NCBI GenBank assembly: GCA_947066105.1
Contig: CAMSYM010000008.1
Location: forward strand, 26,695-90,694
Source: an uncultured Clostridia bacterium
Lineage (GTDB): Bacteria > Bacillota > Clostridia > Christensenellales > Pumilibacteraceae
Reading direction: 5' to 3'
Length of the DNA: 64,000 nucleotides
Part shown: positions 25,531 through 56,700 of the stretch, in pieces
Position numbering within the stretch: position 1 is the first letter of the stretch
How the letters are laid out: every line of letters starts with the position of its first letter
Notes under the pieces: model-generated
Told to the model about the DNA's origin: nothing
Database searches by the model: none
What the model saw: the letters and a program-made list of their open reading frames with translations, nothing else
Program-made: the position numbers and the translations under genes

Positions 25531-25571
25531 AATTAAGGATTCGTAATGATCGATCCCTACGGGTGATGGAG

Positions 25572-26185
25572 AATTCGGAATTAGGAATGCGGAATGCGGA
25601 ATTATAGTCTATTTATATTTATGCGGCTTCGCCTAGATCTCTCCACTCCACTCCACTCGCTTTGCTCGTTTCGGTCGAGATGATGGGGGGGGGGCGATGT
25701 ATCACTCTTTTTTGTCATCCTGAGCAACGCGAAGGATCTCAACCATATTTAAAAAAGATGAGATTCTTCACTGCGCTACGCTTGTTCAGAATGACAATAA
25801 ATAGTTGTGCGCTACGCTTGTTCAGAATAGCCTGCGGCTGCTACGTAGGACAAGGATATAGTTGGACATGTATATGGCAAACAACAACCTACACCCCCAT
25901 CATTTCGAGCGGAGCAAGTGAAAAAGCATAATTAATACAAACGAGATTTAGAATTGTAAAATATCGTTAATCGTAACAAAAAACTACGCGTAGCCTTCGG
26001 CTACCGAGAAATCAAGGCGAACCGCCGCAAAGTGAAATAGTAATTATGAATTTGGAAAGCAGAATTACGGTCGATTAAGTATTGTGCGGCTACGCCTAGA
26101 TCTCTCCACTACACTCGCTTTGCTCGTTTCGGTCGAGATGATGGGGGGGGGGCGATGTATCACTCTTTTTTGTCATCCTGAGCAA
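25572..26185. repeat. Composite repeat cluster, copy B: heptamers, two about 100-bp direct repeats and REP hairpins
   Basis: 25622-25727 is nearly identical to 26085-26185. The interior matches 1726-2027. Confidence 0.9.
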
Positions 26186-28936: not shown

Positions 28937-30040
28937 ATGAAAAAGTACGATTATTTGATAGTAGGCGCGGGATTGTTCGGCGCGACGTTTGCGCAGACGA
29001 TGACCGAGCGCGGCAAGAAATGTTTGGTCATAGACAAGCGCGAAAGCGTGGGCGGCAATATCGCGACCGAAAAGATCGCGGGCATAGACGTTCATAAATT
29101 CGGCGCGCACATATTCCACACGAGCGACAAACGCGTTTGGGATTACGTAAACAGGTTCGCCGAATTCAATAATTTCATCAACAGCCCGATAGCCAACTAT
29201 AAAGGCAAGCTTTACAGCCTGCCGTTCAACATGTATACGTTTTACCAGCTGTGGGGGACGCGCACCGCGGCGGAAGCGCGCGCGGTCATCGAATCGCAAC
29301 GCGCGGCGACGGGAATTACCGATCCCAAAAATCTCGAAGAAAAAGCGTTGATGTCGGTCGGCGAGGATGTGTATAAAATTCTGATCAAGGGCTATACCGA
29401 AAAACAGTGGGGCAGGGATTGCAAATATCTGCCGTCGTTTATTATCGGACGAGTGCCGTTGCGATTCGTATACGACAACAATTATTTCAACGACCGTTAT
29501 CAGGGCATTCCGATCGGCGGCTATACCCAAATGGTCAAGCGCATGCTCGACGGTATCGACGTCAAGCTCGGCGTCGATTACTTTTCCGACAAAGCTAAGT
29601 GGGACGAGACGGCGACAACGGTTTTGTACACGGGCGAGATAGATCGGTTTTACGATTACCGTTTGGGCGAGCTGGAATACAGGTCGTTGCGGTTTGAAAC
29701 GGAAGTACTCGATGCGGAAGATCATCAATCCAACGCGGTCGTCAATTACACTGATTTCGAAACGCCGTATACGCGCATTATCGAGCATAAGCACTTCGAC
29801 AGAACGCAAAGCTCGGACAAGACGGTCGTCACTCGCGAATATCCCGAAAGCTACGTAAAGGGGAGCGAGCCGTACTATCCCGTCAACGATCAAAAGAACA
29901 ACGCGCTGTACGCCGAGTATGCGCGGCTTGCCGAAAAAGAGAAAAACGTCATATTCGGCGGACGGCTCGCCGGCTATAAGTATTACGATATGGACGACAC
30001 CGTCGCGGCGGTGTTCGAACTTACCGATAAGCTTAAATAA
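28937..30040 (+). CDS. glf: UDP-galactopyranose mutase
   Basis: IVGAGLFG, HKFGAHIFHT, YTEKQWG, RIIEHKHF, EPYYP and GRLAGYKYYDMD motifs. Confidence 0.95.
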   Translation: MKKYDYLIVGAGLFGATFAQTMTERGKKCLVIDKRESVGGNIATEKIAGIDVHKFGAHIFHTSDKRVWDYVNRFAEFNNFINSPIANYKGKLYSLPFNMYTFYQLWGTRTAAEARAVIESQRAATGITDPKNLEEKALMSVGEDVYKILIKGYTEKQWGRDCKYLPSFIIGRVPLRFVYDNNYFNDRYQGIPIGGYTQMVKRMLDGIDVKLGVDYFSDKAKWDETATTVLYTGEIDRFYDYRLGELEYRSLRFETEVLDAEDHQSNAVVNYTDFETPYTRIIEHKHFDRTQSSDKTVVTREYPESYVKGSEPYYPVNDQKNNALYAEYARLAEKEKNVIFGGRLAGYKYYDMDDTVAAVFELTDKLK

Positions 30041-30060
30041 ATAATACAGAATATAAATTG

Positions 30061-30090
30061 AAAAAGCTCGGTTTTGCGCCGAGCTTTTTC
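30061..30090. terminator. Terminator after glf
   Basis: AAAAAGCTCGG / CCGAGCTTTTT stem. Confidence 0.75.
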
Positions 30091-30285
30091 GGTTGCCAAA
30101 TTATACGGCGGGGCATTACAGCACGGATAAGGATCGACCGTGTTTGTTTATGTGTGTAAAACATCGATAAAAAATATAAAATTCGACATAATAGATACGT
30201 GACGGAAACCATATAACCCCCGTGCATACGCTACGGAGCGACAGTAAAAACTCCGAAATAATTTCGGGAAATTTGCGAAAAGTAC

Positions 30286-30316
30286 TTGACAAATCAAAAC
30301 GGGGGGGGGGTATACT
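30286..30316 (+). promoter_or_regulatory. sigmaA promoter of GH3 cluster 1 with a G10 tract in the spacer
   Basis: TTGACA (30286-30291), AATCAAAAC + G10 (19-bp spacer), TATACT (30311-30316). Confidence 0.7.
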
Positions 30317-30456
30317 TATAAAAAATATGCTTACAGACAGTTGCGTGTCGGGGCGTGTGATGAAATTACCGATCGTCGCGATCGTTCCGTCCGTCGACCA
30401 AGGTTTATACGTGTGCATAACACGGATAGATAAATATATAAAAGGAGAAGGATGAA

Positions 30457-33400
30457 ATGAAAAAACATTCCAAGGCAGTCCGTAGAGGCGTTACCGCAGG
30501 TGCGCTCGCGGCTGCGGTAGGACTCGTCGGAGCGGCGGGAGGTATCGCGGGAGCGGGCGCAAACGGCGCGTTTGCCGCGACGGCGGAACCGCTCTACAAA
30601 TCGGCGTATTCGAGCAAGGCGGAAGCCATGCAGGCGGGACTCGATCTCAACTTGAAGATCGCCGAAGAAGGCATGGTTCTTTTAAAGAACGAAAACAAAA
30701 CGTTGCCCATTGCGTCGGGCGGCGTCAAGGGCGCGCGCGTTACCGTGTTCGGTCGTGCGGGTACTAAGCCCGCCACGGGCGGGAGCGCAAACGGCGGCGA
30801 CGCGTCCGGCGGCGTTGCGGGAGTAAGCGTCGACATTTACGACAGCTTGGCGAGCGCGGGCTACCGCGTCAACCCCGTAGTAAAAGCGCAGTACGTCGAT
30901 TGGACTTCGCAGGTGCGCGAAGTACCCGGCACGGACTGGCAGGGCAATCCCACGGTCACGCAACAGCCCGTATATCCGAGCGATGCGTCCATCGCGGCGG
31001 AAATAGAAAAATTCGGCAACGACAGTGACTGGGTCAAGTCGTTCGACAGCTACAACGACGCGGCGCTCATATTCATAAGCGGCGGGTCCAACGCGATAGG
31101 TTCGGGCGCGGGCAAACGCATACACTCGTTGCAGCTCGACGAAGAGCAGTACGAACTTGTGGAACACGTGGTCGATTCGGGTAAGTTCAAACGCATAGTA
31201 TTGCTTTTGAACACCTGCACGCCGCTCGAACTCGATCTTGCGAGATTCGACGATGTGGGCGCGATATTGCAGATAGGCGAGCCGGGCGACAACGGCTTGG
31301 GCGCGCTCGGCAAAGTACTTAACGGCACGGTGTCCCCGTCGGGACGGCTTACCGATACGTGGGCTAAGGACTTTACGAAAGACCCGTCTTATCACAACTT
31401 CAATACCCGTACCGACAACTTCGGTTGGTCGGTCGACGGCAACGGAACTTTTACCGGCTATACGCGGTATAAGGTGGACGGCAAGCTCGTCAACACGTGG
31501 TCGGTTGGATACGAGGAAGGCATCTATACGGGTTATCGCTATTACGAAACGCGCGGCGCGTCCGACGAAGCTTGGTATAACAACAACGTCAACTGGACGT
31601 TCGGCTACGGTCTTTCGTATACCGATTTTAAGTGGGAGCTTGTCGGCGAGCATATGAACACGACCGGTATCGGCGCGAACACTACGTTAACATACGATGT
31701 GAAGGTCACCAATACCGGCGATCATGCGGGTAAGGACGTTGTGGAACTTTATTACACTGCGCCGTACACCGAATTCGACAAAACCAACGGCATAGAAAAA
31801 GCGCATGTCGTTTTGGGCGATTACGCCAAGACCGATACGCTCAGACCGGGCGAAAGTCAGGTGGTCCATCTTACGCTCGATGCGAAGGATATGGCGTCCT
31901 ACGATTTTGCGGTAAATAAAACTTACGTACTCGAACAGGGCGATTACGAAGTCAAGCTCATGGAGAACGCGCATACGGCTAAGGGCGAGAACTTGTCCAA
32001 GACGTATAGCGTTGCGGACCTTGTCAAGTGCGACACCGCCGTTACGGGCAACAAGATAACCAACCAATTCGACGACGTTACCGACGGCTTTAAGTCCGAA
32101 GGCTACGTATCGCTTTCGCGCAACGACTGGGAAGGCACCATGCCGACCGAGCTTGCGACAGTCGATACCGTCGACGGCTACGCCAAGGCGAGCGTCAAGG
32201 AGATAACCGCCGAGCAATATAAAAAATGGGCGTACGACGACGCGGCGTTCAACGCCAAGTACGACGGCATAGCTACCGTCAAGCTCGGCGACGCGTCCAA
32301 GCGCACCGGCGATACGTATAAGTTCGTTCTTTCCGACCTTATCGGCGCGGATGCGGAAGACGCGCGTTATCAGGAACTCGTCGAACAGCTCACCGTCGAA
32401 GAGATGATCGATCTCGTCAACAACGGCGGATTCCAATCCAAGGCGATACCGTATATCGGCAAGCCGTTCTCGCGCGATACCGACGGGCCCAAGGGCTGGA
32501 CGGGCAACTATACCGACAGCACCGACCGCTTCAACTTCTTCGCGTCCGAACCGATGATCGCAAGCACGTACAGCAAAGACCTTGCGTACGAAATGGGCGT
32601 TATGATCGGCGAACAGGGCTTGTGGGGCAACGCCACGCAGGAAAGCGGCGTCGCGTACAACTATACCGGCTGGTACGCGCCCGGCATGAATATACACCGC
32701 GGCTACTTCGACAGCCGCTATACCGAGTATTATTCGGAAGACCCCGTGCTTACCGGCATGACGGCGGCTTCCGCGTCGCTCGGCGCTAAGTTGAAAGGTT
32801 GCTATATCACGCTCAAACACTTTGCGTTCCACCAAGACGGCGGCGGCGCGTCCACCTACCGTGCGGGCGCGATGGCGGCGGCAGGCACGCCCAACGAAGG
32901 TTTGTCGGCGTGGATGACCGAACAGACCATCCGCGAGCTTTATCTCAAAGGCTATCAGATCGCTGTCGAAAGCGGCGAAGCTACGTTCGCCATGGGTTCG
33001 TTCACGCGTATCGGCTATACCTGGTGCGGCGGCAGCTATGCGGTAAACACCGCGCTCCTGCGCGACGAGTGGGGCTTTAAAGGCGCGGTCGTGACCGACA
33101 TCGTTCTTTACAACTCGGTCAACGCGTATCAGCTCATCAAAGCGGGCGCCAACCTTATGCTCGACGCCAAGGTGTACGGCATAAACGGCGGCATTTATCT
33201 CGACAAAGCGACTATCGACGCAATGCCCGCCGCGGATAAAAACATCACGCTCCATTGCTTACAGCAGGCTACCAAGCAGGTACTGTACATGGTCGCCAAC
33301 AGCAACGCCATGCAGATCCCGACCGGCGCGAAAATAGTCTACACGGGCATGACCGAAGTAGACGGCGAAGAAGTAGAGCTCAAACTCGCGGACGCCAAGG

Positions 33401-33768
33401 TCGGCGCGGCGTATACTTCCGTCGCCGTGAACAATGCGTCGCTCAACACGTACTACGCATTCTCGGATATCCGATACTCGGTGGCGGGTCTGCCCGACGG
33501 CTTGACGTTCGACGCCGATACAGGCGTGATAAGCGGCACTCCGACCAAGGCGGGCGTCTACAACATTACCGTCACCGCCACGGCGGAAGGCTATAAGTCC
33601 GCATCGATCGATCTCGCTTTGACGGTCGGCGCGGCGGACGGCGCGATAGACGCCGCCGATAACGGCGATACCGTCGACGCGGTGGCTGTTGCCGGTCTTG
33701 TTATCGGTATAGTCGGCTTGCTCGCGGCGGGCGCGGCGATAGCGCTTGTCGTGGTCAAGAAAAAATAA
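30457..33768 (+). CDS. GH3 beta-glycosidase 1 (permuted domain order), secreted, with Ig-like domain and C-terminal TM anchor
   Basis: EEGMVLLKNE, SPSGRLTDTW, YEEGIYTGYRYYET, FGYGLSYT, DTDGP, KHF, nucleophile motif VVTD, GLPDGLTFDADTGVISGTPT. Confidence 0.9.
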   Translation: MKKHSKAVRRGVTAGALAAAVGLVGAAGGIAGAGANGAFAATAEPLYKSAYSSKAEAMQAGLDLNLKIAEEGMVLLKNENKTLPIASGGVKGARVTVFGRAGTKPATGGSANGGDASGGVAGVSVDIYDSLASAGYRVNPVVKAQYVDWTSQVREVPGTDWQGNPTVTQQPVYPSDASIAAEIEKFGNDSDWVKSFDSYNDAALIFISGGSNAIGSGAGKRIHSLQLDEEQYELVEHVVDSGKFKRIVLLLNTCTPLELDLARFDDVGAILQIGEPGDNGLGALGKVLNGTVSPSGRLTDTWAKDFTKDPSYHNFNTRTDNFGWSVDGNGTFTGYTRYKVDGKLVNTWSVGYEEGIYTGYRYYETRGASDEAWYNNNVNWTFGYGLSYTDFKWELVGEHMNTTGIGANTTLTYDVKVTNTGDHAGKDVVELYYTAPYTEFDKTNGIEKAHVVLGDYAKTDTLRPGESQVVHLTLDAKDMASYDFAVNKTYVLEQGDYEVKLMENAHTAKGENLSKTYSVADLVKCDTAVTGNKITNQFDDVTDGFKSEGYVSLSRNDWEGTMPTELATVDTVDGYAKASVKEITAEQYKKWAYDDAAFNAKYDGIATVKLGDASKRTGDTYKFVLSDLIGADAEDARYQELVEQLTVEEMIDLVNNGGFQSKAIPYIGKPFSRDTDGPKGWTGNYTDSTDRFNFFASEPMIASTYSKDLAYEMGVMIGEQGLWGNATQESGVAYNYTGWYAPGMNIHRGYFDSRYTEYYSEDPVLTGMTAASASLGAKLKGCYITLKHFAFHQDGGGASTYRAGAMAAAGTPNEGLSAWMTEQTIRELYLKGYQIAVESGEATFAMGSFTRIGYTWCGGSYAVNTALLRDEWGFKGAVVTDIVLYNSVNAYQLIKAGANLMLDAKVYGINGGIYLDKATIDAMPAADKNITLHCLQQATKQVLYMVANSNAMQIPTGAKIVYTGMTEVDGEEVELKLADAKVGAAYTSVAVNNASLNTYYAFSDIRYSVAGLPDGLTFDADTGVISGTPTKAGVYNITVTATAEGYKSASIDLALTVGAADGAIDAADNGDTVDAVAVAGLVIGIVGLLAAGAAIALVVVKKK

Positions 33769-33885
33769 CCGTTTAGAATACCGTAATAACTGTCAATAAT
33801 AAGTAGCGCGGTAAGTCGAGTGCGTTCGCCGTATGCGGGCGTACTCGGCGAACGCGTAAATACTATTAAAGAAAAGGAGACAACT

Positions 33886-34515
33886 ATGAAAAAGTTCATC
33901 AAAAAATTGCTTGCCGTAGCTTTGGCGGGTTGCATGCTGTTTTCCGTGGGCGCGCTCACGGCATGCGGCAACGGCAACGACGAGGATAACGGCGGCGACA
34001 ACGGTTCGGGAACGGAATACACGTTCGAAGCGGAGTACACCGATCTTACGGGGCTCGAAGGCATGGGACCGTCGGGCAGTCCCAAGGGGCTGGACTTGAT
34101 AAGCGAATCCAAAGAGGCGAGCAACGAGTTTTTTGTGGGAAGCTTGGGCGAAAAAAGTCCCATAACGTTCAAGATCACGTCCGACAAAGCGGTGACCGCC
34201 ACGCTTAAAGGCATATTCGGCAGTAACGCGCTTTCGCCCATAACCTGGACTCCCGATACCTTTGCGATCGAAGTCAACGGCACGGCGATAACGTACAGCG
34301 GGTTCAAGACCGAAACGTCGGTGTCGAGCACGCAAAACTTCAAGCTCCGCACGATAGGCGATATTTCGCTCAAAGCGGGCGAGAATACGATAGTGTTCAA
34401 GCCGAAGGAAAACAAATATCTCAACGGTACTACGAGCGCGCCGTCCATCGACTGCATCAAGCTTACAGCCGATGCGACGCTCACTTTCGACGCGCACGAG
34501 AGCAATCTCGATTAG
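33886..34515 (+). CDS. Lipoprotein with a single CBM6/35-like beta-sandwich domain
   Basis: Lipobox LTAC. The domain starts FEAE and ends APSIDCIKL, as in CBM6/35-like folds. Confidence 0.7.
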   Translation: MKKFIKKLLAVALAGCMLFSVGALTACGNGNDEDNGGDNGSGTEYTFEAEYTDLTGLEGMGPSGSPKGLDLISESKEASNEFFVGSLGEKSPITFKITSDKAVTATLKGIFGSNALSPITWTPDTFAIEVNGTAITYSGFKTETSVSSTQNFKLRTIGDISLKAGENTIVFKPKENKYLNGTTSAPSIDCIKLTADATLTFDAHESNLD

Positions 34516-34540
34516 TATCGATCTATTGTAATACGAAGAT

Positions 34541-34620
34541 AAACGGAAAGGCGTTGTATCGGCTTGCGTTGCGTCGTTACGCCGCTTGCGGTCGGTACGG
34601 CGCCTTTTCGTTTTATTTTT
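34541..34620 (+). terminator. Long intercistronic stem-loop (attenuator/stabiliser)
   Basis: 24-bp stem, 34541-34564 with 34590-34613, containing G-U pairs and followed by a T-rich run. Confidence 0.7.
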
Positions 34621-34659
34621 TACTTAACGGACCGAAAGCGTAACATAGGGAGCATATGT

Positions 34660-37600
34660 ATGGATCTTAAATTTATTTGGAAGCACAAAGGTACGCGCGC
34701 ATGGCTGTTGACTACCTGCATACTGTTGGTATTGGTGTTGGTCATCTCCTTCGTCATAACGCAAGTACCCATAATCAACAACTCGTTGGGACTGGTATTC
34801 GGCGGCGAGCGCGCCAATATAGTCGAAGATCGGCGCGACGAGCTTTACAACCGCGAGTACGACAACAAAAAGGACGTGCTCGCCGCGGCGAACGAGTTTG
34901 TGGAAAGCGTCGCCGAGGAAGGCATAACGTTGCTTAAAAATCAAAGCAATGCGTTGCCGCTCGGCGCGGGCGCCAAGGTCAGCGTGTTCGGCAAAAACTC
35001 GGTCGATCTCGTTTACGGCGGATCGGGTTCGGCGAGCGGCGCAACGGGCGCGGCGCGTAAAACGCTTTACGACAGTCTTAAAGCGGCGGGCATCGAATAC
35101 AACCCCGTGCTTAAAAGCTTTTACGACGACAATTCGCGGTCGGGTTCTGGCAGACCGGATAACCCGCCCATGACGAGCGGTCAGCGCTTGGCGGGCTTTG
35201 CCGTAGGCGAAACGCCTATAGCGTCGTACGAGCCGCTCGAAAATTCGTACGACGGTTATACGGACGCGGCGATCGTCGTGTTCTCGCGCATAGGCGGCGA
35301 AGGATTCGATCTGCCGCGCACCATGGCGGATGATTTCGGGTCGGATAAACCCGTGTCGGGCGCGGAGTCGGCGGACAGCCATTATCTCGAACTCGACAAA
35401 AACGAAAAAGCGTTGTTGGACCACGTCAAATCCAAGTTCGGAAAAGTGGTGGTCGTGCTCAATACGGGTACGACAATGGAACTCGGCGCGCTCGATGCCG
35501 ACCCGGATATCGACGCGGTGTTGTGGATGGGCTTGCCCGGCGCGACGGGCGTCATGGCGCTCGGCAGGATACTTACGGGCGAAGTCTATCCGTCGGGGCG
35601 CACTGTCGATACTTGGGCGGCGGATTTCACCAAAGACCCCACCTGGTACAATTCGGGCGTTTACGGCAGTAAGTACGGCAACCGCTATCTGAAACCCGAC
35701 GGCTCGACGAGCGATTTTGCTTTCGTTAATTACGAAGAAGGTATTTACGTCGGCTATCGCTATTACGAAACGCGAAGCTACGAAGAGAACAAGACCGCGC
35801 AGACCGTCGACGAGTGGTACGATGCAAACGTCGTGTATCCTTTCGGCTACGGACTGTCGTATACCGATTTCGATTGGGAAGTGTCTTTCGATAAACCGAC
35901 GGGTTCGGCAATAAATGCGGACGACGTTATCAAGGCGACGGTCAAGGTCACGAACAAGACCGAAGTCGCGGGCAAGGACGTCGTTCAGCTTTACTATACC
36001 GCGCCGTACACTGCGGGCGGCATAGAAAAATCACACGTCGTGCTCGGCGCGTTCGCAAAGACAAAGCTCATCGCGGGAGGCGGCACGGATACCGTCGAGC
36101 TGGAACTCAAAGTATCGGATATGAAGTCGTACGACTGGTCGGACGCCAACGGCAACGGGTTCAAGGGCTACGAGCTGGACGCGGGCAAATACACGGTGAC
36201 GGTCGGAACGGACGCGCATACCGCAAAGGCGAGCGCGACGTACGAGCTTAAAGACGGCGTTACGTTGCGCGAGATAGCCGATGCGGACGGAAAAGCGGTC
36301 GCGGTGCAAAACCGTTTCGACGACGTGAGCGCGGGCATATTCGGCAACGATACCGCGGCGGCGTATGTATCGCGTTCGGACTTTGACGGAACTTTGCCGC
36401 AGGCGTATTTGACGGACGGCGAGCGTACGCTCACGCAAGAGCTTTTGACCAAGCTCGAAAATTCGATCAAGCGCAAGTATACGGAATCGGACGACGGCAA
36501 AAAATGGCAGGTGACCGGCGAGTCGCCGCGCACCACGCCCGTCGATAACGGGATATCTTTTGCCGACATGCTGTATGACGACGACGGCAATTTCGTCGGT
36601 TCGGCGGACTTCGACGATCCGCGCTGGGAAAAACTGCTCGACGAGATATCGCTCGACGAAATGAAAAATCTCGTCGGATTCGGCGCGTTCCGCACCAATG
36701 CTGTGTCGGGCGTGAACGGCGTAGTGGATAAACCGTTGACCAACGACAGCGACGGTCCGAGCGGGTTCACGAGCTTTATTTCGGGCGCGACCATATACGA
36801 CACCTGCTCGTATCAGGCGGAATGCTTGCTCGGCGCGACGTGGAACGTAGAGCTTGCTTACCGCATGGGCGAGATAGTCGGCGAGGAAGGTTTGGTTGGT
36901 AACGAAAAGGGCGACGGCATGCCGTACAGCGGCTGGTATGCGCCGGCGGTAAATATCCACCGCAGTCCGTTCGCTGGCAGGAACTGGGAATATTACAGCG
37001 AGGACGGCTTGCTTTCGGGCAAGTTCGCCGCCGAAGTCATTAAGGGCGCGCGGACAAAGGGCGTATATTGCTACGTCAAGCATTTTGCGGTAAACGATCA
37101 GGAAACCGACCGCGAGTACAACGGGATCTTGGTTTGGGCTAACGAACAGGCTATGCGCGAGATATACTTGGAGCCGTTTGAAATAGCAGTCAAGCAGGGC
37201 AAAGCCAACGCCATGATGACGTCGTTCAACCGTTTGGGCATGACGTGGGCTGGCGGCAGCTACGAGCTGCTCACCGAAACGTTGCGCGACGAATGGGGCT
37301 TTAAAGGCATGGTCATTACCGATTACAGCCTTAACCGTTATACGTACGTCGATCAGATGATACGCGCGGGCGGCGACTTGTTTTTGACTCAGGACGTAAA
37401 AACGTTCAATATGCCCGACGACGCTACGCAGGTAACGCTGTTGCGTAAGGCGACTAAAAATATTTTGTATACCGTAGCCAACAGCAATATCATGAGCATA
37501 AAGATAGACGGCTATAAGCTGGCGGTGTGGCAAGTGGTCCTTATCGTTATCGACGTAGCGGTGATAGTCGCGCTCGCCGTATGGGGAGTGCTGATAATAT

Positions 37601-37722
37601 ACTTCACGCGCAAGCGCGAAAAGGAAATGCTCGGCGTCGGTCCGGCGGCGAGTGGGGCGGAGCTCGACCGTTCGACGGACGCGCCGTCGGGAGAACAGCC
37701 TGTCGACAGCGACGAAAAATAA
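34660..37722 (+). CDS. GH3 beta-glycosidase 2 (permuted), N- and C-terminal TM anchors
   Basis: EEGITLLKN, YEEGIYVGYRYYET, DSDGP, KHFAVNDQE, VITD. Confidence 0.9.
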   Translation: MDLKFIWKHKGTRAWLLTTCILLVLVLVISFVITQVPIINNSLGLVFGGERANIVEDRRDELYNREYDNKKDVLAAANEFVESVAEEGITLLKNQSNALPLGAGAKVSVFGKNSVDLVYGGSGSASGATGAARKTLYDSLKAAGIEYNPVLKSFYDDNSRSGSGRPDNPPMTSGQRLAGFAVGETPIASYEPLENSYDGYTDAAIVVFSRIGGEGFDLPRTMADDFGSDKPVSGAESADSHYLELDKNEKALLDHVKSKFGKVVVVLNTGTTMELGALDADPDIDAVLWMGLPGATGVMALGRILTGEVYPSGRTVDTWAADFTKDPTWYNSGVYGSKYGNRYLKPDGSTSDFAFVNYEEGIYVGYRYYETRSYEENKTAQTVDEWYDANVVYPFGYGLSYTDFDWEVSFDKPTGSAINADDVIKATVKVTNKTEVAGKDVVQLYYTAPYTAGGIEKSHVVLGAFAKTKLIAGGGTDTVELELKVSDMKSYDWSDANGNGFKGYELDAGKYTVTVGTDAHTAKASATYELKDGVTLREIADADGKAVAVQNRFDDVSAGIFGNDTAAAYVSRSDFDGTLPQAYLTDGERTLTQELLTKLENSIKRKYTESDDGKKWQVTGESPRTTPVDNGISFADMLYDDDGNFVGSADFDDPRWEKLLDEISLDEMKNLVGFGAFRTNAVSGVNGVVDKPLTNDSDGPSGFTSFISGATIYDTCSYQAECLLGATWNVELAYRMGEIVGEEGLVGNEKGDGMPYSGWYAPAVNIHRSPFAGRNWEYYSEDGLLSGKFAAEVIKGARTKGVYCYVKHFAVNDQETDREYNGILVWANEQAMREIYLEPFEIAVKQGKANAMMTSFNRLGMTWAGGSYELLTETLRDEWGFKGMVITDYSLNRYTYVDQMIRAGGDLFLTQDVKTFNMPDDATQVTLLRKATKNILYTVANSNIMSIKIDGYKLAVWQVVLIVIDVAVIVALAVWGVLIIYFTRKREKEMLGVGPAASGAELDRSTDAPSGEQPVDSDEK

Positions 37723-37742: not shown

Positions 37743-37782
37743 CAAAACGGATATCGGATAAACTTCGGTATCCGTTTTTTTG
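37743..37782 (+). terminator. Terminator ending GH3 cluster 1
   Basis: AAAACGGATATCGG / CGGTATCCGTTTTTT stem. Confidence 0.75.
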
Positions 37783-42836: not shown

Positions 42837-43037
42837 AAACCACTATATATTGTGTATATGGTGGTTTTTTATTGCGAAATTGTCACAACACCAAAAGGCA
42901 TACATTACACGCTTAGTATACAAAAAGCGCACTTTTACGGCGTTAAATTTTATTAGGCATGCGCATTTATAATGTTGACATGTGTCGGAATTTATGATAT
43001 TATTAGTAAAAAGCGAGATTGCGGAGGCGAAAATTGT

Positions 43038-45065
43038 ATGTATACGATCAAACCGGAGTCGGTTAAAACATTTGTTTTGGATAGAAATATCAAGCTTCCG
43101 CGGTTTCAAAGGAAGCAGACTTGGACGGAAAAGAAAAATTTTCAGTTATGTATAAGTTTATTTAAGCAGTATCCGTTGGGCGTTACAATATTAAGCGTTG
43201 AAGAAAAAAACGGTAAAACAATCAGATGGTTGTTAGACGGGCGTCAGAGAAGGAACGCTTTATTGCAAGTGTATGAAAATCCCGAAAATATTTATATTTG
43301 GGCGAGAAAATTTATCGGATTTAAAAATAATGATCAACCCGATGAAATAGGAGATCGTTTTTGGGAAAAAATTCAAGAATACATAGAATACGACGACATA
43401 GACAATGCCGATATCGAAGACAATAATGACGTTAACGATTATGAAAGTTCGGGCGCTTTCGTAACAGATGAGAATATTGATTTGGACGGTAATACCGGGC
43501 TGGATTTTTTGTTGGAAATAATTAAGATTTTTCATAATAAATCATTGACGAATAACGGCTTTACCAAACCGTTTGATATTTGCAAATATGTTCGAACGCT
43601 TCCTTATGCGGATAATAATCGGGGTGCCAATATGCTGTCGTCTAAAAAATTAAAGAATTTTTTGGATGAATATAGAAAGTATTGCGATTTGGAAAACTTT
43701 AATTATGAGCAAATGCAATCCTTTTATCAATTTATCGGTTCAAGATGCGATATAACGGAACCCGATAAATTAAAGCAATTTTTGGAAATGAAAAAAAGCG
43801 ATATAGTGTCGAGAATAAATCTTATAGAAAGGATAGATAATTTGTTGGCTAACAGCACAATAGGATTGATCGAAGTTAAAAATCTTTCGCCCGTGGATTC
43901 TCAAAAGATTTTTAATATAATAAACACGGAGGGCGAAAAATTGACGGCGGTTGAAGTTCTTTCCGCAAAACCTTCGTGGAATACGATAATATCCAATGTG
44001 TCCGATGAAATGAAAAATGCGGTTAACGAATTGTATGAACGAATCGGTACGAATTATGTCGACGTCGTCAAGTGGGATTTGCCTGCGACGCTTTTGCGAC
44101 GGATCGGTAATAATTTCATTGTCAAAAAATTCAGCGATTCCGCAACCGATTTTGCAAAAGAAATAACGTTTGGATTTAAATTGATAGCCGGCATTTGGAA
44201 TTTCGGCGTAAAAAAAGAAGATTATGAATCGTTGAGTATTAATCGTAATATCAATTGGGCTAACGAATATGAAGAATTGGTATACGATTTAAAAAGCATG
44301 ATTAAATTAATGGAAAGTTTTAATTATTTTGAATTTTTCAAGACATGGCGAACTTCGATCATGGAATTGACAAGCGAATCCATAGCGTTAAACTTTTTTA
44401 TAATAATGTTTCTCGATTGGAAAAGAAAAGGAAAACCGATAGGGAACAATTTAAAAGCGAAAATGTTCGGAAAGAATTGTTTAATATTATGGGATAAATT
44501 AATTTACGAGTACGTGTCGACCTTATGGCGCGGCTCTGCCGATGCGAAAATAGCGGCTAATATCGGTTCGATTAAAAACGAACCCGACGGATTGTTTACA
44601 CAGACGGAATCGAGTAAGTGGCTTCAAATATTCGATGAAATAGAATCGTCGGCAAAAATCATGGGCAATAAAATAAGCGAAGCAATGATGAAACCGATTT
44701 TATATCATTTTTACTGTTTAAAATCGATATCTGCGCCTACGGATCCTTATAGCATAGAGATCGACCATATAATTCCGCAAACGCTGTTTGAAAATTCCAC
44801 GATAAACGATAAGGAACATATTAAAGACAGTATATTCAATTTGGGTCTTTTGCCTAAAAAAGAAAACATAAGCAAAACAAATAAACGATTGATCGAAATA
44901 ACAGATGATTGGCTGAAAGATCAAATTGCGAATTATGAATTTGTCACTCCCGATCAATATCAATTTTACTCCGATATTACCAATTACAAAACGATTTTTG
45001 CACAGAGAAAACGATTATTTGCGGAAGTTTTCGGTGATTTGAGAGATCAAAAAATAAATAATTAG
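43038..45065 (+). CDS. DUF262 + C-terminal HNH (DUF1524-like) protein, GmrSD/SspE-like defence nuclease
   Basis: LPRFQR..W, LLDGRQR, FNIINTEGEKL, and IDHIIPQ...NLGLL...N...N. AT-rich relative to the flanks. Confidence 0.8.
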   Translation: MYTIKPESVKTFVLDRNIKLPRFQRKQTWTEKKNFQLCISLFKQYPLGVTILSVEEKNGKTIRWLLDGRQRRNALLQVYENPENIYIWARKFIGFKNNDQPDEIGDRFWEKIQEYIEYDDIDNADIEDNNDVNDYESSGAFVTDENIDLDGNTGLDFLLEIIKIFHNKSLTNNGFTKPFDICKYVRTLPYADNNRGANMLSSKKLKNFLDEYRKYCDLENFNYEQMQSFYQFIGSRCDITEPDKLKQFLEMKKSDIVSRINLIERIDNLLANSTIGLIEVKNLSPVDSQKIFNIINTEGEKLTAVEVLSAKPSWNTIISNVSDEMKNAVNELYERIGTNYVDVVKWDLPATLLRRIGNNFIVKKFSDSATDFAKEITFGFKLIAGIWNFGVKKEDYESLSINRNINWANEYEELVYDLKSMIKLMESFNYFEFFKTWRTSIMELTSESIALNFFIIMFLDWKRKGKPIGNNLKAKMFGKNCLILWDKLIYEYVSTLWRGSADAKIAANIGSIKNEPDGLFTQTESSKWLQIFDEIESSAKIMGNKISEAMMKPILYHFYCLKSISAPTDPYSIEIDHIIPQTLFENSTINDKEHIKDSIFNLGLLPKKENISKTNKRLIEITDDWLKDQIANYEFVTPDQYQFYSDITNYKTIFAQRKRLFAEVFGDLRDQKINN

Positions 45066-49481: not shown

Positions 49482-52400
49482 ATGAATTTCAAGACGTTTT
49501 GGAAAAAAAGAAGCTTTAAGGCGTGGTTTTGCTCGTTCATACCCGTGCTTGCTTTGACGCTTGCCGTCGTGCTTGTGCTTACGTGCAATACCTTTTTGTA
49601 TCAAACGATAAACGCCGTGTTGGGCGGCGAGCGTCGCGTGTTAAAAAGCGGTGACCCGTCCAAGTATCAGTATTACACCACGGAGTACAAGGGCAAGGAC
49701 GACGTGCTTGCGGCGGCGAACGCGCTCAACGAGCGCATAGTAGAAGAAGGCGCGGTGCTTTTGAAAAACGAAAATAACGCATTGCCCGTCGCGGCGGGCG
49801 CAAAGGCTACCGTTTTCGGCAAGAATTCGGTCAACGCGGTTTACGGCGGTTCGGGTTCCAACGCGGGCGCGGGCGGCGACGACGGCAAATGCACTCTTTA
49901 CGATAGTTTGGAAAGCGCGGGAATCGAGTATAACGACGCGATGAAGGCGTTTTACGACAGCGACAAGCGATCGGGCGACGGTCGTCCCGCATCGCCCGAC
50001 ATGAATTCGACCATAACGGGTTTGACCGGCTTTGCCACGGGCGAAACGCCTGCCGACAGGTACGACGATACGGTACGCGCGTCGTGGAAGGATTACAACG
50101 ATCTGGCGATAGTGTTTATCTCGCGCATAGGCGGCGAGGGCTTCGATCTGCCGCGCTCCATGTTTTGGGACGGCAAGGGTTATCAAAACTGGAACGGCGA
50201 TTCGCTCATACCCGGCGCGCGTAACAAGGACGATCACTACTTACAGCTCGATAAAAACGAAACGGACATGATAAGCGTCGCCGCGCAAAACTTCGATAAG
50301 GTCGTTGTCGTGCTTAACTGCCCCACGAGCATGGAACTCGGATTTTTGGACGATCCCGATCATTACGCGTACAGCGACAAAATAAAAGCGTGCTTATGGA
50401 TAGGCACGCCCGGCAATTCTGGCATGGCGGCGCTCGGCAGGATACTGACGGGCAAAGTTAATCCGAGCGGGCGGACGGCGGATATTTACGCGCGCGACTT
50501 TAAAAAAGACCCGACCTGGAACAACTTCGGCAATAATCTCGAAGAGGGCGGCAATCAGTACGTCGACGAGAACGGCGAAAAGCGCAGTGCGTACTTCGTG
50601 CATTACAGCGAGGGCATTTACATAGGCTACCGCTATTATGAAACGCGTGCGCTTACGGAATCGAATAACGGCAACGGCGGGTGGTATAAGGACAACGTGG
50701 TGTTCCCGTTCGGTTACGGGCTGAGCTATACAGACTTTACGTGGAGCGTCGAGCGTACTTCGCATTCCGAAAGCTTCGACGGCGACGACACGATCACCGT
50801 CGACGTAAAGGTCGTCAACGTCGGCGACGTTGCGGGCAAGGACGTAGTACAGCTTTACTATTCCGCGCCGTACTATTCCGATAGCGGTATCGAAAAATCG
50901 CACGTCGTTTTGGGCGCGTTCGCAAAGACGAAGTTGTTGCAGCCCGGCGAGAGCGATACAGTTGCGCTCGAACTTTCCGCGCGCGATATGGCGAGCTACG
51001 ACTATGCGGACGGTAACGGCAACGGGTTTAAGGGCTACGAACTCGAACACGGCAACTATACGCTGTACGTTGCGCGCGATTCGCACGACCGTTCCGCGCC
51101 AGTCACGCTTTCGCTCGGCGCGGACGTCAAGTACGAAACGGACGGCAAAACGGAGACGCCCGTTAAAAATCTTTTCGACGACGTAAGCTCGCGCGTGACC
51201 GAGTACATGAGCCGCGACGACTTTGAAGGAACGTTTCCGCAAGAACCGTCGGCGGAGCTTCGCACGCTCAAAGCGAGCGATATACAAAAGCTGAATTACA
51301 CGTTAAAGGATAAGGCGAGCGATCCGTGGTACAGTACGGATATGCCCGATCAAAGCGCGTCGGAGCTTACGCGCGATCAAACAAAGATCAAGCTTTACGA
51401 CCTTATAGGCAAGGACTACGAACACGAGCTGTGGGACGAATTGCTCGATCAATTGACTGTTTCGCAAATGCGCTCGCTCATAGAGATAGGCAACTACCAT
51501 ACCGAAGCGATAGTCGGTATAGACAAACCCAAAACCACCGATCCCGACGGACCTATGGGCTACTCGCTGTTCATGGGCGACGACGCGGTGTATAAGACCT
51601 GCTACTATGCGGGCGAATCGCTCATGGGTAGCACGTTCAACGTCGAACTGGCGGAAGAGTTCGGCAAGATGATAGGCGACGAGTCGCTCATCGGCGATCG
51701 CAAGGGCGACAAGCGCACGTATTCGGGCTGGTACGCGCCCGCGTGCAATCTTCACCGCAGTCAGTTCGGCGGACGCAACTTCGAGTATTACAGCGAGGAC
51801 CCCGTGCTTTCGGCTAAAATGGCTGTGGGCGTTATCCAAGGCGCGATGAGCAAGGGCGTATATACTTATCTCAAACATTTTGTCATGAACGATCAGGAAA
51901 CCAACCGCGACACCAACGGTATAGCGGTGTGGGCTAACGAGCAGACCATGCGCGAGCTGTACTTTTTACCGTTTGAAAAGGCGGTCAAGGACGGCGGCAC
52001 TACCGCGATGATGAGTTCGTTCAACCGCATAGGCTTTACCTGGGCGGGCGGAAATCACACGCTGTTGACAAAGCTTCTGCGCGACGAGTGGGGCTTTAAG
52101 GGCATGGTGATAACCGATTACAACCTGCAACAGTACATGAACGTCGACCAAATGATCCGCGCGGGCGGCGACGTCAACCTGAGCCAAAGCAAATCGCTCA
52201 AAAATTACGATACCGCGACTTCGGTCACGGCTATACGCAAAGCTGCCAAGAACATTCTGTACACGGTAGCCAACAGCAACGCCATGAACGGCATGGGCGA
52301 AGGCAACGTTTGGGCGTACGCCGCGCCCGTATGGTTCATAGCTATGTGGGTCGTGTTTGCCGTGCTTGCGGCGGGATTTGTCGCATGGGGCGCGGCGGTG

Positions 52401-53768
52401 ATAGCGAAAATAGCCGTCGAGTACAATACGGGCGTAAAGAGCGGCGTTATAGTACCGCCCGCAAAAAAGCAACGCGTCAAAGATCCCGACTTTAAAATGA
52501 GCAAGCTCGCTAAGATATTCATAGCGGCGACGGGCGGCGCGGCGGTCGCGCTTGCGGTGACGGCGATAGCGCTTTTGGCTACGCCCGCCGAGCAAAGCGG
52601 CGTGCCGCAGGATTACAGACCATACGTCGGCGGGATCACTTTGACTTTCGACAACATGCCCGTTACGGGCGGAGTAGTCACCGTCGAGCGCGGCGGCGAC
52701 ACTCACCGCATAACGGCGCTCGTCGATACGTACGGCATGGAATCGGGCGGGGTCGTATACGAAAGCTCCGACGAGAATATAGCGGCGGTCGGAGCGGACG
52801 GCACGATCGACGCGAGAGCGGTCGGCGAATGTTCGGTCACCGTTACGGTAGTCAACGATAAGTCGGTGTACGGCGCTTTGCTTGTGCGCGTTACCGACGG
52901 CGAGCTTGACGGCACGGCGCACGTCGTGACGGTGGTGGGCGGAAGCGCGAATTTGGCGCAGGCGACTGCGGGAACGACGGTAATACTCACGCCCGAAACT
53001 CGTACGGGCATGCGCTTCGTCGGCTGGGAATTCGACTGTGAAGTCGAACAAAGCGGAAACCTGTTCCGCATGCCGTCCGCGCCCGTTACCGTAACGGCTA
53101 AGTACGAGAAGATAGGTTACAAACTGACGCTCGACGGCGCGACGTTCGCGGACGGCGAAAGCGAAAAAACTCTGTTGTACGAGGACGGTTTCCCGCAAGA
53201 CATGCGTTATACGCTCGACGACGGCGAGCTGTTTTTCGGCTGGCGCGACAAGGTGAACGGCAAACGCGTGACCGATCTTACCATGCCCGCGCGCGACATG
53301 ACGATACAGCCGATGATCCTTGCCAAGGGCGATGCGCTCGTCATGGCGGAAAACGGATTCGATTACGGTTCGGGTACGGGCGGCAATGCGACCGATACCG
53401 ATATCGACGGCGTAGCCGCAAAGCGCATAGAGATAGCGGCGGGGCAAAGCCTTGTGCGCATCAAAAACGGCGGAGTCACCGGCGGCGGCGATAACGACGT
53501 GTACGTCGGCATCACTCTGCGCAATCCCAACGAGTTCGATATAACTTTGGAATATCAGGTGGAGTATTACGGCGTAGTGTGGGGTACGGGCAAGGTGACA
53601 GTCAAGGCGGGCGAAACGGCAACATATGCCATAGTCGTAAACGGACTGGACGCAACGGCGACGCCTTATCACAGAATAGTTTTGGAAGCGGCGACGGAAC
53701 AAACGGCAATGCTCGATTTTTGCGGGTTTATTTACGAAACCGAAGGAGAGAACAATGAAAATGCGTAA
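49482..53768 (+). CDS. GH3 beta-glycosidase 3 (permuted) with TM hairpin, Big_2-like, InlB-B-repeat-like and beta-sandwich domains
   Basis: EEGAVLLKNE, YSEGIYIGYRYYET, TDPDGP, KHFVMNDQE, VITD. Two TMs after the catalytic core. Confidence 0.9.
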   Translation: MNFKTFWKKRSFKAWFCSFIPVLALTLAVVLVLTCNTFLYQTINAVLGGERRVLKSGDPSKYQYYTTEYKGKDDVLAAANALNERIVEEGAVLLKNENNALPVAAGAKATVFGKNSVNAVYGGSGSNAGAGGDDGKCTLYDSLESAGIEYNDAMKAFYDSDKRSGDGRPASPDMNSTITGLTGFATGETPADRYDDTVRASWKDYNDLAIVFISRIGGEGFDLPRSMFWDGKGYQNWNGDSLIPGARNKDDHYLQLDKNETDMISVAAQNFDKVVVVLNCPTSMELGFLDDPDHYAYSDKIKACLWIGTPGNSGMAALGRILTGKVNPSGRTADIYARDFKKDPTWNNFGNNLEEGGNQYVDENGEKRSAYFVHYSEGIYIGYRYYETRALTESNNGNGGWYKDNVVFPFGYGLSYTDFTWSVERTSHSESFDGDDTITVDVKVVNVGDVAGKDVVQLYYSAPYYSDSGIEKSHVVLGAFAKTKLLQPGESDTVALELSARDMASYDYADGNGNGFKGYELEHGNYTLYVARDSHDRSAPVTLSLGADVKYETDGKTETPVKNLFDDVSSRVTEYMSRDDFEGTFPQEPSAELRTLKASDIQKLNYTLKDKASDPWYSTDMPDQSASELTRDQTKIKLYDLIGKDYEHELWDELLDQLTVSQMRSLIEIGNYHTEAIVGIDKPKTTDPDGPMGYSLFMGDDAVYKTCYYAGESLMGSTFNVELAEEFGKMIGDESLIGDRKGDKRTYSGWYAPACNLHRSQFGGRNFEYYSEDPVLSAKMAVGVIQGAMSKGVYTYLKHFVMNDQETNRDTNGIAVWANEQTMRELYFLPFEKAVKDGGTTAMMSSFNRIGFTWAGGNHTLLTKLLRDEWGFKGMVITDYNLQQYMNVDQMIRAGGDVNLSQSKSLKNYDTATSVTAIRKAAKNILYTVANSNAMNGMGEGNVWAYAAPVWFIAMWVVFAVLAAGFVAWGAAVIAKIAVEYNTGVKSGVIVPPAKKQRVKDPDFKMSKLAKIFIAATGGAAVALAVTAIALLATPAEQSGVPQDYRPYVGGITLTFDNMPVTGGVVTVERGGDTHRITALVDTYGMESGGVVYESSDENIAAVGADGTIDARAVGECSVTVTVVNDKSVYGALLVRVTDGELDGTAHVVTVVGGSANLAQATAGTTVILTPETRTGMRFVGWEFDCEVEQSGNLFRMPSAPVTVTAKYEKIGYKLTLDGATFADGESEKTLLYEDGFPQDMRYTLDDGELFFGWRDKVNGKRVTDLTMPARDMTIQPMILAKGDALVMAENGFDYGSGTGGNATDTDIDGVAAKRIEIAAGQSLVRIKNGGVTGGGDNDVYVGITLRNPNEFDITLEYQVEYYGVVWGTGKVTVKAGETATYAIVVNGLDATATPYHRIVLEAATEQTAMLDFCGFIYETEGENNENA

Positions 53769-56700
53769 GAACAAAATGTACAAAGCGACCGCGTCGATTT
53801 TTGCGGCGGCGCTTATCGCGACAAGCGCGTTCGGAGTTGCTCCCGCAATACGCGTTGCGGCAAATAATGCGGGGGGGGGTATGCCTTCCGAAATTTCCGA
53901 AAGCTCCGCAAGCGCGAAAACGTTGAAAAAGAGTCCCGTCAACGGAAATTATTATTTCGCGGATTACGACAGCTCGCAGGAAGCGTTCGAAGCGGGCGAC
54001 AGGCTTAACAAGGATATAATATCCGAAGGCGCGACACTGCTCAAAAACGAAAACTCTCTGCCGCTCAAAGCGGGCGCAAAGGTAAGTATTTTCGGAAAAC
54101 GCTCGGCTAACAACCTGCGTTACGGCGGCGCGGGTTCGGGCGCGGGCAGCGGCGGCGCGAAGATAACTCTCGCGCAATCGTTGGAACGCGCGGGGCTTTC
54201 CGTAAACGCCGCATTGACGTCGTTTTACAATAACAATAACCAGTCGGGATCTGCGGGCGGCGATCTTAACAGTTACGGTGTTTATGCCGGACCCAAAAAC
54301 GGGTTCGAAACGCCGGTAGCCAAGCTCAAACAGTACGTAAACGAAAGCACGTATTCCGAGTACGGCGACGCGGCTATCATAGTGATCTCGCGCGCGGGAA
54401 GCGAAGCGGGCGACCTTACCAAGGGCATGGCGACGGGATACGGCGGCGACGGCAGGCTAAACGGCACTCCCGTTTCGGGCGCGCGCAATGCCGACGATCA
54501 TTACTTACAGCTCGATCAAAACGAGACCGATCTCATCAAGTACGTGGGCGATCGTTTCGACAACGTTATAGTGTTGTTTAACACAGGCTCGCAAATGGAA
54601 GTTGGATTTTTGGACGACGAAAATCACTATGCGTATCACAAAAATATCAAGGGCGCGATGTGGATAGGATTCCCCGGCAACGGCAACGGCTTGGAAGCCG
54701 TGGGCGAGATATTGGCGGGCAAGATAAGTCCGAGCGGACACACCGTAGATACTTACGCGCGCGACTTCAAGCTCGACCCTACGTGGTCGAACATGCCGAC
54801 GTATACAAATAATTTGTTCGTATACTCCAACTATTCGAGCAAGTCGTTCGTCAACTACAAGGAAGGCATTTATTCGGGCTACCGTTATTACGAGACGCGC
54901 GGGTTCACCGAAGGCGACGACGCGTATGTCAGCGGCGGCGAAAATACCGACGTTATCCACGGCACGAACACTACCGAGTGGGATGATTGGTACGACGCGC
55001 ACGTAGTGTATCCGTTCGGCTACGGCTTGTCGTACACTTCGTTCGACTGGGAGTTCGTAAGCTCCACATTGCCCGACGACGGCGTTATAGACCGCGACGA
55101 CGAAATATCCGTTTCGGTCAAGGTGACCAACACGGGCGAATACGCGGGCAAGGACGTAGTTCAGCTTTATTATACCGCGCCGTATACTGCGGGCGGGATA
55201 GAAAAGTCGTACGTCGCGCTTTGCGGGTATGCAAAGACGGGCGTGCTGGCGCCAGACGAAAGTCAGGTCGTCACGATGTCGGTCAAGGCGCGCGACATGG
55301 CGAGCTACGATCATAACGACGCCAATAAAAACGGATTTAAGGGTTATGAGCTGGAAGCGGGCGATTACGTTTTGAACGTAAGTCGCAACGCGCACGACGC
55401 GGTCATAAAAAAGGCGTTCAAGGTGGCGGGAGACGGCTTTAAGTACGCAGAGAACGAGATCGGCGTAATAGTCGAAAACCGCTTCGCCGATGCGGAAGCG
55501 GAAAACACAGTATATCTGAGCCGCAAGGATTTTGCGGGGACGTTCCCCAAAGAGCCGACGGCGGAAGAGCGTATCGCGGCGCAGACGGTGACGGACAAAG
55601 TCGCCGAAACGTCGGACAGCAACAAGATAGTTGCGGGCGACGATCCGTCCGATCCGTACTATGCGAGCGAGATGCCCGTAACGGGCGCGGACAACGGCGT
55701 AAAACTTGTCGATCTTTACGGACTCGATTACGAGAGCGCGGACTGGGAATTATTTCTCGATCAGCTTTCCGTCGGCGACAAGACGACGCGCGGCACTATG
55801 ACCAACGCCGTTTGGGAAAGCGGCTGGACGAGCTTCGGTAACTCGGCGCTCGGCATACCCGATTTTCACCATGAGGACGGTCCGAGCGGTATCGCGGGGC
55901 GGTACGTCAGCGGCGGTAACTATACCAACTTCGCAAGCGAAACGGTCACCGCATCCACTTGGAATAAAGAGCTTGCCGAACGCAAGGGGAATATCATAGG
56001 CAATCAGGGCTTGTTCGGCAACGGCTCGTCGCACGTGGAAGCGCTGTACGCGCCCGCTTGCAATATCCACCGCAGTCCGTTCGGCGGGCGTAACTTCGAG
56101 TATTTTTCGGAGGACGCGTATTTATCGGGCGAGATGGCGGGCAACATCGTCGCGGGCTGTAACGAAAAGGGCATGATAACCTTTGTTAAGCATTTTGCGG
56201 TCAACGATCAGGAATCCAAGCGCGACACGCTGTTGACCTGGGCGAACGAGCAGACTATACGCGAAGTGTATTTGCGTCCGTTCCAGATCTGCGTGGAAAA
56301 ATACGAGTCGCACGGCATGATGTCTGCGCTCAATAATCTCGGCGCGGTATGGACGGGCGGACATTACGAACTTTTAACCGACGTACTGCGCGGCGAGTGG
56401 GGCTTCGACGGCGTGGTCATCACCGATTACGTGCAAGGTCGCGGACAGCTTAACGGCAATATGGCGTTGCGGGCGGGCGGGGATATTTTGCTCGCGACGA
56501 GCGGCTCGGTGCAAAACCCCGCGGGACTCGATAAGCCCACGACCGTCGCTAATCTGCGCCGTGCGACGCATAATCTGTATTACAATATAGTCAACTATAC
56601 CGCGGCTTTCAATAAGAGCGTGATAAACGCGATGGGCGCGTACGACGGCGGCACGCTCGCGCCTGCCATCGATTCGATGGATTACGAGCAGTCGGTAGCC

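Follow-up and report, generated by a model that had tools for sequence, protein, structure and literature searches.

A length-variable poly-G tract in the promoter spacer of a GH3 glycosidase operon in mouse-gut Clostridia, and its probable role in tuning promoter strength

The promoter of a GH3-lipoprotein-GH3 operon in an uncultured gut Clostridia bacterium carries an uninterrupted run of G residues between its -35 and -10 boxes, and the length of this run differs among otherwise identical assemblies. A hypermutable promoter-spacer tract is well supported by these observations, and the tract probably tunes the strength of the promoter that drives the operon. Within this preferred reading, true length polymorphism of the tract is highly likely, and an effect of tract length on expression is rather likely. 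Hereafter, the window denotes the whole stretch of DNA that was analyzed, 64,000 nucleotides (64 kb) in length.

The promoter was read directly from the + strand of the window. It comprises the -35 hexamer TTGACA (30286..30291), which matches the consensus at six of six positions and is the same in every strain and in the L008 and L002 orthologues of the promoter; a non-repetitive spacer part of 9 nt, AATCAAAAC (30292..30300); the variable element, a poly-G tract that is G10 in the window (30301..30310); and the -10 hexamer TATACT (30311..30316), with five of six consensus matches. These letters and coordinates agree exactly with those of a first-pass annotation of the same DNA, which had described TTGACA, AATCAAAAC with G10, and TATACT. 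The spacer (30292-30310) is 19 bp long, the promoter as a whole matches 11 of 12 consensus positions, and it is located approximately 140 bp upstream of the ATG of the first GH3 gene (30457). We infer that the TTGACA/TATACT pair is the promoter actually used. From the position of its -10 box, transcription is predicted to start near 30323 on the + strand, which would give a 5′ UTR of 30323..30456 with the Shine-Dalgarno sequence AAAGGAGAAGG at 30441-30451. An Rfam scan of the window returned one tRNA only and no riboswitch or leader in this 5′ UTR. Moreover, a perfect 15-bp palindrome, CCGAAA-TAA-TTTCGG (CCGAAATAATTTCGG; 30253..30267, + strand), was flagged as a hairpin 19 bp upstream of the -35 box. 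The orthologous promoters L008 (CGAAATAATTTTCG) and L002 (AAAAGT-AAAAA-ACTTTT) have palindromes in about the same place, and this element may serve as the operator of a conventional regulator that acts on top of the tract. The promoter is set apart from the preceding glf operon by a hairpin with flanking A/T runs (30060..30090, + strand), which was recognized from the sequence and a hairpin scan, resembles a bidirectional terminator and coincides with a fall in RNA coverage after approximately 29950-30145. A G-quadruplex was ruled out from the sequence, as a lone G10 run cannot provide four G-runs with loops.

To place the 19-bp spacer among the promoters of the organism, the window was scanned for pairs of -35 and -10 boxes that lie 14-21 bp apart and have at least 11 of 12 consensus matches. 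Ten sites were found, eight of which have a 17-bp spacer (384, 7286, 12051, 27299, 40585, 42975, 47753, and 22059 on the minus strand), one an 18-bp spacer (60180) and one, the poly-G promoter, a 19-bp spacer; a scan limited to spacers of 16-18 bp misses the latter. At the looser threshold of 10 of 12, shuffled sequence yielded approximately 1.4 sites per spacer class. The claim that sigmaA promoters in the window have 17-bp spacers with a single 18-bp exception is therefore borne out by the best sites, eight of ten being 17 bp. As the canonical sigma-A promoters are mostly of this length, spacing appears to be strict in this organism, and the poly-G promoter is an outlier. The perfect sequence TTGACA-17-TATAAT is present at six positions (384, 7286, 12051, 27299, 40585, and 47753); six perfect promoters in 64 kb follow the consensus unusually closely, and promoter prediction in the clade could be calibrated with them.

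The genes downstream of the promoter form a putative operon of three genes on the + strand. The first (30457..33768) encodes a GH3 glycosidase of 1103 aa, in which Pfam matches and sequence features indicate a signal peptide, permuted GH3_C, Fn3-like, and GH3_N domains, and a He_PIG Ig domain; its C-terminus has a transmembrane anchor and a KKK tail. The Pfam scores were 49 bits for PF00933 (cut-off 27) and 86 bits for PF01915 (cut-off 31), with similar values for the last gene of the putative operon (34660..37722), a second GH3 glycosidase of 1020 aa. Between the two lies the gene for a putative lipoprotein of 209 aa with the lipobox LTAC|G (33886..34515, called as a gene in L005). This protein and the C-terminal module of another GH3 protein in the window (53755-58482) are homologous (blastp 34.5% over 220 aa), which makes a carbohydrate-binding module probable. 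A terminator-like hairpin with a T run, found by the hairpin scan at 37755..37781 on the + strand, closes the three-gene unit. The nearest solved structures to the 1103-aa GH3 among PDB matches are beta-glucosidases; with the NCBIfam equivalogs, every score for both operon GH3s was far under the cut-off, and no substrate was assigned by this search. The order GH3-lipoprotein-GH3 is kept in L002, L003, and L009, and an RNA contig (X22, 32895-34065) spans the stop codon of the first GH3 gene and continues into the lipoprotein gene. Consequently, the earlier designation of the locus as a glycosidase operon was upheld by GH3 domains, conserved gene order and this RNA contig, and its designation as a surface locus by the signal peptide and membrane anchor, the encoded glycosidases being predicted to be surface-anchored.

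The window contains four paralogous, domain-permuted GH3 genes in its 64 kb (30457-37722 and 49482-58482), which are 34-50% identical to one another. Two of them belong to the tract-bearing operon, and the other two form a tandem pair, in which one protein has a cytoplasmic-looking N-terminus and a transmembrane segment and the other carries a G9 tract. Upstream of 53710, at the 3′ end of the GH3 gene 49482-53768, four of four other assemblies share a different sequence (…CGTTCGATACGGCGACCGAACAGACCACCG); around 53700-53710, either the MAG of the window has a strain-specific C-terminus of this GH3 or it is chimeric. The window also encodes a BspA-type leucine-rich-repeat protein of 1497 aa (2683-7176; PF13306, 552 bits), likely a surface protein; the product of 42972-45065 carries a GmrSD_N restriction-endonuclease domain.

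The sequence of the window is present in metagenomic and metatranscriptomic runs from mouse gut or faeces, and the window matches a mouse-gut, Christensenellaceae-like MAG (GCA_950096665.1, contig CATNAW010000005). Its closest relatives in genome collections are labelled uncultured Clostridia or Christensenellaceae. Relatives were collected through a search with the GH3 protein; a search for the exact promoter pattern with a variable gap gave no match in genome contigs or JGI metagenome contigs. Three lineages with the tract were obtained. In the window species (GH3 100% identical), the promoter reads TTGACA-AATCAAAAC-G10-TATACT, with a spacer of 19 bp; in a 90% lineage (L008), it reads TTGACA-AATCAAAGA-G9-TATACT, with a spacer of 18 bp; and in a 77% lineage, hereafter the sister species (L002, L011), it reads TTGACA-AAAGGTC-G9-TATAAT, with a non-repetitive part of 7 nt and a spacer of 16 bp. 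When the three were aligned, the promoter core was the best-conserved non-coding block, and the UTR had diverged by large indels. In every copy from the three lineages, the G tract is uninterrupted and adjoins the -10 box, while the other part of the spacer is variable in both its sequence and its length. Since a slippage-prone run has been kept at the same promoter position while the neighboring spacer changed, the comparison indicates that the tract itself is under selection. The retention of the tract across lineages with 77-100% GH3 identity was accompanied by four G/C runs of at least 9 nt in the window against approximately 0.03 expected, which also points to selection. More distant, AT-rich orthologous operons (L009, L010) are without the tract, and that of L009 has an ordinary TTGAAA-17-TAAAAT promoter.

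The conserved promoter block has a sharp upstream edge. Beyond approximately 30233-30244, the upstream sequence of other strains of the window species is entirely different, and in the sister species (L012-L024) the corresponding boundary is approximately 220 bp upstream of the -35 box. Instead of glf, assemblies of the sister species have upstream of the operon either a serine recombinase (Resolvase/Recombinase/Zn_ribbon_recom) or a DNA methyltransferase together with a recombinase remnant; L023, L029, and L030 have yet another neighbor. From these sequences, the 5′ flank of the operon looks like a hotspot of recombination or insertion.

Tract lengths were scored as the consensus of assembled contigs, Logan contigs being used for runs, together with contig breaks, and as some runs and loci may share samples, all allele counts are upper bounds on independent observations. 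Among 14 assemblies of the window species, G9 was found three times, G10 approximately nine times, and G11 twice, corresponding to spacers of 18, 19, and 20 bp. The G10 allele is present in the window/L005, L006, L007 (=X1/X2, 30x), X7, X9, X10/X13/L025 (13-15x), X15 (13.5x), and X18 (8x). G9 was recorded in X3 (2.5x, without SNPs relative to the window), X33 (4.3x, from the study and with the haplotype of X9), and L027 (7.6x), and G11 in L026 and in X38 (depth approximately 21), which shares its study and haplotype with X10/X13, both G10. L026 and L027 encode identical GH3 proteins and have five differences in 5,900 nt, two of which are in the tract. G8, which would give a 17-bp spacer, was absent from all of the approximately 14 window-species assemblies.

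Similar variation was observed in 18 assemblies of the sister species, where G8 (four), G9 (thirteen), and G10 (one) correspond to spacers of 15, 16, and 17 bp. G8 is found in L017, L019, L021 (12.4x), and L023; G9 in L002, L011-L016, L018, L020, L022, L024, L029, and L031; and G10, the 17-bp allele, in L030. Seven of these assemblies, which represent one haplotype, came from the same pipeline and have coverage of 7-16x where stated, are identical over 5,394-5,780 nt but for one G of the tract, three having G8 and four G9. Likewise, one tract G is the sole difference between L029 and L030 in 5,150 nt. The other homopolymers of the sister loci (A8, T7, and several A6 and T6) showed no variation. 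Overall, tract variation occurs on at least four haplotype backgrounds in two species, which suggests recurrent mutation of the tract. The first-pass annotation had proposed that an invariant tract length would refute phase variation; the lengths G9/G10/G11 and G8/G9/G10 among otherwise identical assemblies are the opposite of that outcome.

The mechanism that is proposed for the preferred reading, promoter tuning by the spacer tract, is as follows. Slipped-strand mispairing during replication would add or remove single G residues, and each slip would shift the distance and the angular offset (approximately 34 degrees per bp) between two invariant boxes. Each slip would then be a heritable and reversible change in promoter strength. 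A slip should have this effect because the other strong promoters of the organism use a strict 17-bp spacer; from that spacing and from precedent, spacer length is expected to set expression. Changes in the tract would be frequent and reversible within a clone. The outcome would be subpopulations with differing amounts of surface enzyme, that is, a rheostat rather than a clean ON/OFF switch.

Transcription of the first GH3 gene in the gut was evident from RNA contigs, which cover it in five mouse-gut metatranscriptomes. The 5′-most of these begin at 30340 (X14), 30392 (X5), 30473 (X23), and 30475 (X22), and among the RNA contig pieces listed, none crosses 30200-30339. Such contigs fit a start just downstream of the -10 box (near 30323) and co-transcription of the genes. 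The depths of the GH3 contigs were similar to or higher than those of the glf operon (in X22, approximately 9-10 versus 4-6), contig depth being a poor measure of expression. The promoter had been described as a stochastic ON/OFF or rheostat switch that is currently in a low state. Neither the low state nor ON/OFF behavior found support: G10 is the modal allele (approximately 9 of 14 assemblies), the gene is transcribed in vivo, and G8 is absent in this species.

The distribution of modal spacers is a difficulty for a simple model with an optimum of 17 bp. The modal spacer is longer than 17 bp in the window species (19 bp) and shorter in the sister species (16 bp), which is unexpected under that model; the 90% lineage has 18 bp, and the 17-bp allele was seen in 1 of 18 sister assemblies and in none of the window species. 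Full-strength expression may be disfavored in the gut, the unusual geometry of poly(dG).poly(dC) may shift the effective spacer optimum, or spacing may be less important at the poly-G promoter. In addition, G10 is the dominant consensus across several strains with approximately 3% difference in the flanks and, because it dominates in strains so far apart, stabilizing selection on G10 rather than free switching is pointed to.

These features are also what would be expected if the tract were mutable and kept for another reason, its length having little effect on expression and changes of ±1 being tolerated noise. In one variant of this explanation, the tract acts within the spacer through its structure or its specific sequence, poly(dG).poly(dC) having unusual twist and rise and a G standing at -14 of an extended -10; in another, transcription proceeds mainly via the -10 region or an activator at the upstream palindrome. 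Modal spacers that differ among the three lineages (19, 18, and 16 bp), with 17 bp hardly ever seen, the persistence of G10 across diverged strains, transcription in vivo despite a G10 consensus, and the conserved palindrome just upstream of the -35 box all accord with it, and an excerpt of PMC5758882 describes homopolymeric spacer tracts as fixed promoter-selectivity elements for other sigma factors. However, TTGACA is perfect in all three lineages, which argues for its use, and the strict spacing of 17 bp that other strong promoters of the window keep argues that the RNA polymerase is sensitive to spacing. Furthermore, a purely structural element need not remain an uninterrupted, slippage-prone run of 9-10 nt. 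A tract of neutral length was accordingly considered unlikely, and promoter tuning was retained as the preferred reading.

The observed lengths could, in principle, also arise technically, through Illumina or PCR stutter and assembler behavior at G10, with the real tract being fixed. The site is indeed hard to sequence and assemble: contigs break at or beside the promoter tract in X4, X8, X17, and L028, and a MAG contig of the 90% lineage (L001, CANDGE010000048, 1-106) ends in poly-C-rich junk directly upstream of its G10, which was treated as an assembly artefact and left out of the allele counts. Two of the three G9 calls in the window species were, moreover, made at 2.5-4.3x. Deviant lengths were nevertheless obtained at good depth (G11 in X38 at approximately 21x, G8 in L021 at 12.4x, and G9 in L027 at 7.6x), and the 3:4 split arose among otherwise identical assemblies from the same pipeline. 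A coding-sequence G9 elsewhere in the window was stable in four assemblies, including X8, where promoter-tract contigs break, and a consensus requires a majority of reads, which stutter does not yield. A purely technical origin was therefore judged improbable. True polymorphism is retained as part of the preferred reading. Short-read assembly systematically loses or corrupts tracts of this kind.

Finally, over-long spacers of 19-20 bp are characteristic of promoters of the MerR family, in which a spacer-untwisting activator realigns the boxes, and the window allele has 19 bp; however, the spacer AATCAAAACGGGGGGGGGG is without dyad symmetry, its length varies between 15 and 20 bp across orthologues, and no MerR-family domain was found in the genes scanned around the operon, so that a promoter of this type is hardly credible here.

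The promoter tract is one of few long G runs in the window. In 64 kb, G/C homopolymers comprise 118 runs of 4, 5 of 5, 1 of 6, and none of 7-8, followed by one G9 (53871-79) and three G10 (25685-94, 26143-52, and 30301-10), each with its G residues on the + strand. Under an order-3 Markov model, approximately 0.03 runs of at least 9 are expected, against the four observed; an order-0 model predicts 0.6 such runs, and approximately 92 runs of 5 against the 5 observed. Long G runs thus greatly exceed the chance expectation, although G/C runs are otherwise avoided in this genome. The homopolymer count also showed that it was correct to restrict the other long G runs to a repeat cluster and one GH3 gene.

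The G9 at 53871-53879 lies in the GH3 gene 53755-58482 (1575 aa, GH3/He_PIG) and encodes Gly-Gly-Gly directly after the predicted signal peptide (…AIRVAANNAGGGMPSE…). A slip of ±1 at this site is a frameshift, one of the shifted frames terminating approximately 17 codons on, and the position is classic for a translational phase-variation tract. It was G9 and in frame in four of four other assemblies checked, at 10-32x and with run X8 included. The repeat cluster (25571-26185), which is located between tex and a DUF4097 gene, is a dispersed repeat with two direct copies of an element of approximately 155 nt, each with an internal G10 (…TCGAGATGAT-G10-CGATGTATCAC…GTCATCCTGAGCAA); a partial copy in reverse orientation (25894-25918) has C5 only. 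In mouse-gut metagenomes, contig depth in the repeat region is 200-500 compared with 10-15 in its flanks, which marks it as a high-copy element, and some copies have G11. Descent of the promoter tract from this G10-bearing repeat was considered and rejected, as the two have no similarity other than the G residues.

A broader proposal, which is speculative and which we consider doubtful, is a small contingency system for surface glycosidases in this clade of uncultured mouse-gut Christensenellales. It would comprise the promoter-spacer tract of one GH3 operon, the in-frame G9 of another GH3 gene, and the G10 on a high-copy repeat. The promoter tract would be selected off the 17-bp optimum (modal 19 bp, sister 16 bp), with most cells at low and a minority at high enzyme levels, as bet-hedging or division of labor for an enzyme that is costly, shareable, and exposed to antibodies and phages. 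Under this proposal, phase variation of carbohydrate foraging through simple sequence repeats (SSRs) would occur in gut commensal Firmicutes and not in pathogens only.

If tract length sets expression, single-nucleotide differences between strains would alter the glycan-degrading phenotype of an abundant mouse-gut lineage, and contig breaks would systematically conceal tracts of this kind. Most metagenomic pipelines throw away such differences as homopolymer noise. The locus also provides a clean natural experiment on the response of a Gram-positive sigma-A holoenzyme to spacer lengths of 15-20 bp.

Repeat-mediated phase variation is textbook knowledge in Neisseria, Haemophilus, Campylobacter, and Helicobacter. 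Heritable heterogeneity in gut commensals is known mostly from invertible promoters and variable methyltransferases in Bacteroidota. In the literature searched, no commensal Clostridia were described in which a homopolymer switches the promoter of a glycoside-hydrolase operon.

The closest known system is porA of Neisseria meningitidis, and related spacer or promoter tracts are those of opc and fetA. Control of promoter efficiency by the repeat-dependent spacing of promoter elements is established, as stated in PMC5084427, which cites van der Ende et al. 1995 (J Bacteriol 177:2475; its ref. 24) for porA. The two systems share an uninterrupted G run of approximately 9-11 nt in the -35/-10 spacer of a housekeeping-sigma promoter, single-nucleotide slips that alter the spacer, a surface-exposed product, and several lengths that coexist among closely related strains. 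Several features of the porA class were found here: the tract is uninterrupted and at least 8 nt long, varies in length between constant flanks, and is over-represented and conserved. Judged by sequence, it probably also lies between the -35 and -10 boxes of the promoter that drives the operon, an 11/12 match with both boxes conserved in three lineages. The locus is, therefore, a probable case of porA-type promoter-spacer phase variation in a gut commensal Firmicute. In porA, a proteobacterial pathogen varies a porin or adhesin target, whereas here a three-gene glycoside-hydrolase operon would be varied by an uncultured Gram-positive-type gut commensal from the Christensenellaceae-like Clostridia. 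The modal allele here is, in addition, 2 bp over the canonical optimum, which was not observed in the window species.

The promoter T-tract of sabA in Helicobacter pylori provides the model of a rheostat (PMC4081817). In both systems, a homopolymer beside the core promoter would alter the geometry of promoter elements and make expression graded instead of binary. The sabA tract is located upstream of the -35 box and acts via the axial alignment of upstream elements, whereas the tract of the window is inside the -35/-10 spacer and adjoins the -10 box. The intragenic poly-G loci of Campylobacter jejuni and Neisseria (PMC3025981, PMC5084427) share over-represented G/C tracts of 8-11 nt, the lack of intermediate lengths, and an association with genes for surface structures. 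They act by translational frameshift, in contrast to the promoter tract of the window, which would act on transcription; the coding-sequence tract of the window, unlike theirs, was invariant in the four assemblies examined.

In gut Bacteroidota, surface loci and polysaccharide-utilization loci undergo phase variation by invertible promoters (invertons). The poly-G promoter has no flanking inverted repeats other than the small 15-bp palindrome. Both systems would provide stochastic, heritable variation of surface and glycan loci in gut commensals, through site-specific recombination in the invertons and through replication slippage at the poly-G promoter. The anatomy of this promoter is thus known from porA, and its setting is new: an uncultured gut commensal of the Clostridia, with a glycoside-hydrolase operon probably under its control.
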